From Telmatocola sphagniphila (lineage in GTDB: Bacteria; Planctomycetota; Planctomycetia; Gemmatales; Gemmataceae): a stretch of DNA of 32,000 nucleotides. Made by a program: the position numbers and the translations under genes. This document shows, piece after piece, positions 1,641 to 1,941 of the stretch (the stretch's first letter is position 1; each line of letters starts with the position of its first letter). The DNA is taken from assembly GCF_018398935.1 (NCBI RefSeq), contig NZ_CP074694.1:4800001-4832000 (forward strand). The letters run 5' to 3'. Under the pieces are notes generated by a model. It did no database searches, was not told the origin of the DNA, and worked only from the letters and a program-made list of their open reading frames with translations.

Positions 1641-1689
1641 CGGTCAGCTTTCAGCTTTCAGCTATCAGCATTCAGCTTTCAGCTTGTTG
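1641..1689. repeat. heptamer array (CNNTCAG)x6 ending in CTTGTTG; left arm of an inverted heptamer element
   Basis: Read directly: cggtcag ctttcag ctttcag ctatcag cattcag ctttcag cttgttg. Confidence 0.9.
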
Positions 1690-1780
1690 CAATCCTATTG
1701 GTATAGCTGCTATTTGATAAGAATTCGCAAGGGCTTTGGAATTTTGTGGTCAACTTGAGTATCGACTCAATAATCGCTGG

Positions 1781-1941
1781 CTGACCGCTGACCGCTGACC
1801 GCTGACCGCTGACCGCTGACCGCTGACCGCTGACCGCTGACCGCTGACCGCTGACCGCTGACCGCTGACCGCTGACCGCTGACCGCTGACCGCTGACCGC
1901 TGACCGCTGACCGCTGACCGCTGACCGCTGACCGCTTTCCG
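1781..1941. repeat. tandem heptamer array (CTGACCG)x22 perfect plus one degenerate unit (CTTTCCG); right arm, inverted relative to 1641-1689
   Basis: 154 nt of exact 7-nt periodicity from 1781 to 1934. CTGACCG is the reverse complement of CGGTCAG. The array abuts the nikR stop codon (CTA at 1942-1944). Confidence 0.95.

Follow-up and report, generated by a model that had tools for sequence, protein, structure and literature searches.

A 32,000-nt stretch of the Telmatocola sphagniphila genome (contig NZ_CP074694.1, positions 4,800,001 to 4,832,000; hereafter the window) carries intergenic heptanucleotide tandem repeats arranged in facing pairs, which belong to a TCAGC-core family whose units consist of TCAGC plus two free bases. 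Direct reading confirms the inverted heptamer arrays that an initial annotation had described at positions 1641-1941 (element 1), where CTGACCG is the exact reverse complement of CGGTCAG. As that annotation also stated, the architecture recurs, with a second full copy at 18455-18655 (element 2) and a third array that begins at 31948 (element 3), and the element is dispersed, with three sites in the window and hundreds elsewhere in other genomes and viral contigs. CRISPR had been set aside for good reason: the units are 7 nt long and contiguous and the arrays are inverted, whereas CRISPR consists of 23-50-nt repeats with unique spacers of similar length. Judging from the sequences, we tentatively favor, with somewhat less than even confidence, a reading in which the slippage-prone arms would form an imperfect stem around an intergenic region and work at the transcript level as a stem-loop between cistrons or at a 3' end.

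The two-unit pattern CNNTCAGCNNTCAG has 37 matches in the window, compared with 0.02 expected from shuffles, and Tandem Repeats Finder assigns period 7 to the window arrays with 6, 22.4, 5.9, and 5.4 copies, the long arm of element 1 giving 22.4 copies at 100% match. All window arrays are intergenic, lying between open reading frames (ORFs). Across about 20 heterogeneous window units, the five core bases TCAGC are unchanged, and at least nine different dinucleotides occupy the two free positions (NN). The CNNTCAG and CTGACCG arrays of element 1 are 98 nt apart (CTTGTTG plus the 91-nt spacer), and the arms of element 2 are 124 nt apart (CTTGTTG plus the 117-nt spacer). Read on the minus strand, the 5' arm of element 1 is (CTGANNG)6, and 33 nt separate its end from the start codon of a beta-lactamase-family gene, and the TAG stop of a NikR-family gene (complement of 1942-1944) is flush with CTTTCCG on the long-arm side. 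Element 2 is set between convergent genes (GFO/IDH/MocA and G6PD). The organism has also been assembled independently from short reads (Logan SRR14506984, loci L121 and L126); that assembly is identical in sequence and breaks inside the arrays, indicating that the arrays are real and that the count of 22 units is that of the reference assembly alone. The source-genome DNA covered amounts to 42 kb, the 32-kb window plus the 10-kb locus L126, and the extra 10 kb holds no further copy; no record of the ORF beside element 3 was found.

Table 1. Elements 1 to 3 and the genes that flank the two complete copies (window coordinates)
Feature	Position	Strand	Description
Beta-lactamase-family gene	189-1607	-	Downstream of element 1; co-directional with the NikR-family gene
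Element 1, 5' arm	1641-1682		Six CNNTCAG units; NN = GG, TT, TT, TA, AT, TT; core TCAGC invariant
Element 1, inner junction	1683-1689		CTTGTTG, degenerate unit
Element 1, spacer (loop)	1690-1780		91 nt, unique
Element 1, 3' arm	1781-1934		22 perfect CTGACCG units
Element 1, outer unit	1935-1941		CTTTCCG, degenerate
NikR-family gene	1942-2391	-	NikR_C + RHH_1; upstream of element 1
GFO/IDH/MocA gene	16801-18453	+	TGA stop 1 nt from the left arm of element 2
Element 2, 5' arm	18455-18496		(CATTCAG CTGTCAG)x3, six CNNTCAG units
Element 2, inner junction	18497-18503		CTTGTTG
Element 2, spacer (loop)	18504-18620		117 nt
Element 2, 3' arm	18621-18655		CTGACTG x2, CTGATCG x2, CTGACAG
G6PD gene	18656-20119	-	TAG stop fused to the right arm of element 2
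Element 3	31948-31968		Three units, CGATCAG CTTTCAG CGGTCAG; window ends 32 nt on, before any partner

Neither the element 1 nor the element 2 spacer and its surroundings match Rfam at E<=1, their ORFs are mechanical only with none credible, and the whole window compared with the Rfam 15 covariance models gives nothing at the gathering score. A single weak sigma-70-like match lies on the plus strand of the element 1 spacer (1747-1774).

To follow the family beyond this genome, we scanned prokaryotes at one genome per species with a pattern of four units with four intact cores, for which we estimate about one match by chance. The scan returned at least 120 loci, mostly from Acidobacteriota; other carriers among the matches listed include Planctomycetota, Verrucomicrobiota, Chloroflexota, Poribacteria, Nitrospirota, cyanobacteria, and others. 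No flanks are shared among the 120 genome loci. TCAGC-core arrays are also present in phages, identified among IMG/VR viral contigs that were scanned likewise for four intact cores and for which the matches listed are a lower bound. All host and viral counts of properties given below are among the matches listed (for hosts, 143 arrays in at least 120 loci), with pairs that have two strict arms tallied from both sides and gene boundaries taken from heuristic ORF calls. Since the scan demands four intact cores, core conservation outside the window is partly a matter of ascertainment.

The arrays obey a strong polarity. Whichever strand is read, units of the TCAGC type precede those of the GCTGA type, such that 56 (+3) of the 143 host arrays have a partner array on the inner side and only 1 has it on the outer side; the corresponding numbers for viral contigs are 84 (+14) and 5 (+1). 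Loops between the listed host pairs measure 0-317 nt.

Placement is equally orderly with respect to genes. When arrays are oriented in the CTGA sense, a coding sequence boundary lies within 40 nt on the 3' side in 72 of 102 arrays, comprising 41 antisense gene ends and 31 sense gene starts, and on the 5' side in only 16 of 97. Between an outer end and the adjacent stop codon, start codon, or tRNA end there are 0-20 nt, and the stop codon is often fused to the array (TAGCTGTCAGC). With outer ends flush with the flanking genes, a stem, if formed, would span the intergenic region in full. The reading frame continues through a stop-free TCAG-sense arm in about 11 cases, and about 9 of the 143 host arrays are located well within long ORFs; all others are intergenic or overlap ORF ends. 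At co-directional junctions, the median distance from the stop codon to the 5' arm is 2-5 nt, the loop 18-44 nt, and the distance from the 3' arm to the start codon 8-20 nt, with the 3' arm often ending just ahead of the Shine-Dalgarno sequence; loop and leader together are shorter than 60 nt in 15 of 20 viral and 4 of 11 host junctions. Host intergenic regions with arrays are co-directional in 44 cases, convergent in 20, and divergent in 4, compared with 221, 67, and 84 array-free regions, respectively. Divergent regions are therefore depleted in hosts (4/68 versus 84/372; Fisher p = 8e-4), and 64 of the 68 array-bearing host regions contain at least one gene 3' end.

Two GCTGAAG x4 arrays (CTGAAG within the unit) deviate from the usual placement, at 1979-2006 of locus L007 and 1595-1622 of locus L094. 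The CTGA-sense array of L007 stands directly 3' of the stop of a gene that by eye resembles an integrase type, and the array of L094 is adjoined by a second, unrelated heptamer pair (AGGCTGT/AGCCTGG).

A 34-kb tailed-phage contig with a GC content of ~60%, IMGVR_UViG_3300045936_000120 (L158, L199, and L202), encodes a terminase, a portal, a head-morphogenesis protein, a major head protein, and a tape measure, and its ~59 TCAGC arrays make up ~25 hairpins located between nearly all co-directional genes. Loops in this contig often begin with CTAAA(C/A)CGC. We found no isolated relatives of the phage, and its top capsid matches are 35-37% identical. Among hosts, an eight-tRNA cluster in a Planctomycetaceae metagenome-assembled genome (MAG; L018, 1-1720) has its spacers filled by inverted heptamer pairs that are flush to the tRNA ends and represent three different cores (GAGTTGA, TCAGC, and GAGTCNA). 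CTGA heptamers fill the rpsL-rpsG spacer of L002 and end 7 nt before the start of rpsG (S7). In a Blastocatellia MAG (L064), TCAGC arms sit between sdhA-like and sdhB-like genes, and a 23S_rRNA_IVP gene (PF05635, E = 9e-41) occupies the loop between the arms (2183-2659). Genes that have to be transcribed together thus have these hairpins among them, and the hairpins lack terminator tails. The loops between arms can house other intergenic elements.

Two loci serve as examples. At ~4247-4324 of L016 (Geothrix alkalitolerans SG263), the loop includes a canonical terminator with a GGGCGCC-GAT-GGCGCCC stem and a T run behind it, and a repeat-like sequence, 'GTCATCCTGAGCG...', stands beside a 23-unit array at 3961-4190 of L103.

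These placements suggest how the stem-loop reading that we favor could operate. The arms would be transcribed, usually within polycistronic or read-through RNA, and would pair via their cores as 5-bp helices split by 2x2 mismatches. Since homogeneous cores allow pairing in any register, unequal arms would still pair. This would place a long, imperfect stem at the upstream gene's 3' end and just before the next ribosome-binding site, and this stem-loop may set mRNA ends or stability, undergo processing, or insulate neighboring cistrons, rather than serve as a canonical intrinsic terminator. Its mode of working may be likened to that of REP/BIME hairpins (repetitive extragenic palindromes and bacterial interspersed mosaic elements) or phage T7 RNase III sites. 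The long imperfect hairpin anticipated in the initial annotation is indeed possible, with predicted RNA folds scoring z = -6.4 (-95 kcal/mol) in element 2 and -3.5 in element 1. In co-directional regions, folding is slightly better for the sense than for the antisense strand (30 versus 15; p = 0.03).

Several results weigh against a mechanism of pairing alone. As many as 83 of the 143 host arrays have no recognizable partner, and viral contigs do not share the divergent deficit of hosts (19/99 versus 86/430). NN complementarity between arms is 0.29, compared with 0.28 for arms re-paired between elements, and no co-variation is found; the lack of NN complementarity suggests selection on the core motif of each arm, not on a continuous stem. 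Sense-strand core mismatches are pair-breaking in 46 cases and wobble-preserving in 23, the opposite of what RNA pairing predicts, although this count is confounded by TTAG units that double as stop codons and by A-rich leaders. Finally, hairpin energy is equal for either polarity, so that pairing alone leaves the ~50:1 polarity unexplained. We therefore keep sizeable weight on two rival explanations, one invoking protein binding and the other mutation.

In the first rival, which we regard as unlikely yet worth serious attention, a nucleoid-associated or regulatory protein would bind double-stranded DNA at the asymmetric core TCAGC(T) of 5-6 bp, and outward-facing arrays at intergenic edges would act as polar barriers, in looping, or as global-regulator sites. 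Conservation of the core alone, with free bases that drift without co-variation, is typical of a binding motif and not of a stem. The strict polarity holds at start and stop boundaries alike, which pairing energy does not explain, and many arrays are unpartnered. The authors of PMC2700814 read MTYCTGA pairs as global-regulator (IHF/HU) sites, and deletion of heptamer repeats in Nostoc altered LexA/NtcA-dependent promoter activity (bioRxiv 10.1101/2022.06.06.494920). However, no candidate protein is known, and the same genomes, even the same tRNA cluster, hold pairs of unrelated cores (GAGTC, AGGCT, AGGGTTT, GGTTCAG, and others), each of which would need its own protein. Protein binding also fits poorly with the 7-bp spacing, which would place successive sites on different helix faces, and with the spread of the arrays over many phyla and phages. 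The partner arm is ~50 times commoner on the inner than on the outer side, which points to a requirement for complementarity.

The second rival arises from how the arrays change. The arms are short microsatellites whose unit number rises and falls through slippage, with the 5-nt core kept and the other two bases drifting, and the 22-unit CTGACCG arm is a recent slippage expansion. The initial annotation had set an element family against local slippage; a dispersed family is present, but the 22 identical units and the 14-nt two-unit periodicities in the arrays are slippage signatures, and both processes act. Taken further, the arrays could be a largely non-adaptive by-product, in which slippage-favored heptamers escape mismatch repair, are seeded in intergenic palindromes, expand up to coding sequence, and owe both their facing arrangement and their polarity to the seed hairpin. 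We grant this a minor share of our confidence. It would account for the 22 identical units in one arm of element 1 opposite 6 heterogeneous ones in the other, for the 14-nt periodicities, for arrays that run flush into stop codons or, in the ~11 cases above, through the ORF end, and for an orthologous G6PD site in a relative that has a hairpin of a different repeat. It also agrees with a genome-wide heptamer excess that is not bound to one sequence and with the polymerase-slippage proposal of Mrazek, in the form summarized in PMC4679880. Such a by-product is harder to reconcile with the zero core changes among ~20 heterogeneous units with at least nine NN, for which we estimate a probability of (2/7)^10, or ~4e-6, given at least 10 random changes. 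Nor does it readily explain the same core and polarity in distant phyla and phages, or a compact phage genome that keeps ~25 copies exactly between stop codons and ribosome-binding sites.

A bidirectional intrinsic terminator or insulator, the role put forward in the initial annotation, has in our view a slim chance, and a strong terminator is unlikely. In its favor, the fold prediction gives a stable hairpin for both strands, the genes on either side of element 2 converge, and convergent host regions are somewhat enriched for arrays (20/68 versus 67/372); canonical terminators also occur inside some loops, as in L016. However, the 3' arm is not followed by a U tract: the T frequency there is 0.25-0.36, and at least five T in eight positions are found in only 13 of 141 tails. 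A terminator consensus scan of the window found none at the elements and one at 6217-6252, between convergent genes 4800-6206 (+) and 6279-9014 (-). This is a canonical bidirectional intrinsic terminator, with a 16-bp stem (TGACAAAATCCCGCGG/CCGCGGGATTTTGTCG) and both an A tract and a U tract, indicating that the organism also uses ordinary terminators. Most copies of the TCAGC element lie between co-directional genes without room for a new promoter, and some lie inside phage late operons (terminase-portal-head), rpsL-rpsG, sdhA-sdhB, and tRNA clusters.

The initial annotation had reported junctions shared between copies, and this held in part: CAGCTTGTTG is common to elements 1 and 2 and absent elsewhere in the window. 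In contrast, TAATC[G/A]CTG stands at differing distances, adjacent to the right arm in element 1 (1771-1779) and 11 nt off in element 2 (18601-18609), and has one further occurrence elsewhere in the window, while element 3 has a different inner junction, CAAATTGAGG. Inner junctions are alike within a genome, CTTGTTG in the window and CTAAA(C/A)CGC in one phage, indicating that copies are related by more than the heptamer; CTTGTTG is also found at one acidobacterial locus (L112). The spacers of elements 1 and 2, aligned on both strands, show no homology, which rules out a miniature inverted-repeat transposable element (MITE)-like family with a conserved body.

The G6PD gene of the window is closest to those of Gemmataceae (Tuwongella and Zavarzinella), at 66% identity, which together with the DUF1559/N-methyl proteins marks the source as a planctomycete. 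G6PD relatives of about that identity (Tuwongella and two MAG or metagenome contigs) carry no TCAGC arrays within 21 kb of the gene. In L127 (GCA_043744995.1), whose G6PD is 83% identical, the G6PD stop is followed at 1585-1725, i.e., at the position of the right arm of element 2, by a hairpin with arms of three 9-nt units, (CACAGAGNN)3 ... (NNCTCTGTG)3. The G6PD site thus keeps a repeat-armed hairpin while its sequence turns over. CACAGAG repeats like those of L127 also occur in the acidobacterial loci L013 and L014. Zavarzinella formosa (L123, 16060-16210) has (AGGGTTT)4-50 nt-(CTAAACC)4 between two genes, each arm being flanked on the outside by a mini-hairpin, GTCGCC-N3/4-GGCGAC. The AGGGTTT unit is the plant-telomere heptamer.

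Some of these features could point to a non-autonomous mobile element (MITE-like, or like a REPIN, a hairpin-forming REP doublet) with tandem-heptamer terminal inverted repeats, spread by a transposase encoded elsewhere. The copies are dispersed, a palindromic unit keeps its polarity in either insertion orientation, and the inner junctions are genome specific; one loop holds the selfish-looking 23S_rRNA_IVP gene, and the Zavarzinella arms have their GTCGCC..GGCGAC mini-hairpins. We nevertheless consider mobility very improbable, given that the spacers of both complete window copies are unrelated, that loop lengths vary so widely, and that no target-site duplications or flanking direct repeats are visible at elements 1 and 2. 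By inspection, GTAG/CGTC REP tags are not seen at the arm ends, which read ...AG followed by C and ...G followed by CT, and the outer ends match gene boundaries, not a fixed terminus. Mobility of a MITE-like kind and strong bidirectional termination are both less likely than the protein-binding and mutational explanations.

The TCAGC family is not the only one of its kind in these genomes. With that family left out, period 7 is still the commonest in the carrier loci, with 184 arrays compared with 56 of period 6 and 79 of period 8, and 25-34 further inverted heptamer pairs have other cores. In pairs with other cores the G-rich arm usually comes first (20:5), whereas in the TCAGC family the C-rich arm does (21:3), C exceeding G in the 5' arm of 21 of 24 pairs; window units have no G runs. 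The TCAGC hairpins and their sister-core families could together form a cross-phylum gene-punctuation system, also used by phages, in which heptads mark cistron edges and are read by a conserved host factor, but we hold this broader idea to be improbable. The factor could be RNase III or a heptad-binding RNA or DNA protein that cuts, stabilizes, or translationally couples genes.

Other candidates were examined and rejected. The G-quadruplex heptamer class does not apply, as the units have no runs of three or more G. A universal polarity rule was sought in G/C skew, purine content, and stop codons, but none accommodates all families. Integron attC sites, Chi/KOPS-type polar motifs, and CcrM or restriction sites were dropped on architecture alone.

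The window contains additional repeats that are separate from the heptamer arrays. A ~190-nt segment is directly repeated 891 nt apart with 84-94% identity (29893-30082, 30794-30973, 30949-31032, and 31179-31238); this cluster (29893-31238) has further inverted partial copies and overlaps small ORFs without family assignment, and it may represent paralogous small genes or a local repeat cluster. A perfect tandem 16-mer, TTGGTTCTAGTCTTGA x2, occupies 22075-22106, between convergent ORFs at 20747-21970 (+) and 22097-22978 (-). Two adjacent DUF1559/N-methyl (pilin-like signal) genes share a 92-nt N-terminal coding stretch that is 84% identical (2540-2631 and 3538-3629), as is typical of paralogue families in Planctomycetota. 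Lastly, a 102-nt coding repeat (34-residue period, TPR-like) is present four times at 16088-16452 within the ORF at 15470-16759.

The TCAGC family offers several experimental handles, namely an invariant 5-nt core, a ~50:1 polarity, flush outer ends, and a phage in which nearly every structural-gene junction is marked. If the arms act on transcripts, they would bear on operon annotation, mRNA-end prediction, and expression engineering in Acidobacteriota, Planctomycetota, and their phages. If the punctuation idea were true, the 7-nt periodicity of bacterial intergenic repeats would at last have a function. The arrays also break short-read assemblies, as they do in the source genome.

The initial annotation did not recognize the element as a described repeat class, but intergenic heptamers have been described, as have facing pairs in Xanthomonas and in Geobacter metallireducens. 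Heptanucleotide repeats are the most over-represented long simple sequence repeats in bacteria, according to the summaries of Mrazek (2007) in PMC4679880 and PMC4692102, and among the periodic repeats of prokaryotic intergenic DNA, tandem heptamers are reported to be the most abundant, with a function acknowledged to be unknown (bioRxiv 10.1101/309039; PMC4692102). The window arrays have the properties of such long repeats, being head-to-tail 7-nt units beyond chance and mainly non-coding, and also those of inverted heptamer pairs, with same-family arrays on opposite strands, close together and at variable spacing. The unit itself, GCTGANN/NNTCAGC, has only CTGA in common with the Geobacter MTYCTGA unit and nothing in common with the Xanthomonas GGGAATC unit. 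Within the open-access literature that we searched, repeat strings of the TCAGC family appear only as primer coincidences, and no paper prints them as repeats. The window element is therefore a new GCTGANN family of a known, unexplained kind of repeat.

A close likeness is found in the class 3 predicted global regulator binding sites of Geobacter metallireducens (Gmet_I301-I308; PMC2700814, Additional file 9). These also consist of about five tandem CTGA-containing heptamers in intergenic opposite-strand pairs 70-115 nt apart, with TCAG-type units followed by CTGA-type units on the plus strand, and their function in Geobacter is undemonstrated. They differ in their unit, (T/C)CTGA(A/C)T, in their restriction to 8 pairs in one genome, and in the authors' reading of them as IHF/HU-type sites; no polarity rule, gene-boundary rule, or phage copies were described. 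The Xanthomonas GGGAATC arrays (Rehm et al. 2015, PMC4692102) resemble the TCAGC family in being heterogeneous heptamers in which a core is conserved and other positions are free. Roughly 90% of them are intergenic, ~28 nt from the nearest ORF, and they form 70-75 close convergent pairs per genome and vary in length between related strains (PMC4692102). However, they are G-rich and G-quadruplex-capable with the G-rich arm first, whereas the TCAGC family has the opposite order and no G-tracts. The TAACTGA direct repeats of Beggiatoaceae, cyanobacteria, and Bacteroidetes (MacGregor 2015, PMC4679880), together with the cyanobacterial short tandemly repeated repetitive (STRR) heptamers, likewise place sense CTGA a few nucleotides before start codons, often without a Shine-Dalgarno sequence. 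The TAACTGA repeats are also found in ribosomal-protein operons, as with rpsG in L002, and have a sporadic phyletic distribution, but they are AT-rich and direct only (one indirect case in 170 sets), without a facing partner arm.

In its way of working, the TCAGC element most plausibly corresponds to the REP, BIME, and REPIN sequences of enterobacteria and pseudomonads. Those are also extragenic and inverted, lie in 3' untranslated or intercistronic regions, and are rare in divergent promoter regions, and REP-type elements are considered to stabilize upstream mRNA and to modulate expression within operons (PMC3733652). In contrast to the untagged tandem 7-mers of the TCAGC arms, REPs are single 20-40-nt imperfect palindromes with a GTAG/CGTC head and a link to REP-associated tyrosine transposases (RAYTs). 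Phage T7 RNase III hairpins and the stems of rRNA and 23S intervening sequences are imperfect, with internal loops, and lie between the cistrons of long polycistronic transcripts or enclose a whole spacer. The hairpin-dense phage contig shares with the T7 sites a layout of imperfect stems between co-directional genes, and one TCAGC loop holds the 23S_rRNA_IVP gene; the T7 sites are not built of tandem repeats. To our knowledge, four features of the TCAGC family are absent from the papers cited on heptamer repeats: the spread of one core across phyla, the polarity rule, the flush placement at stops, starts, and tRNA ends, and the dense use by a phage.

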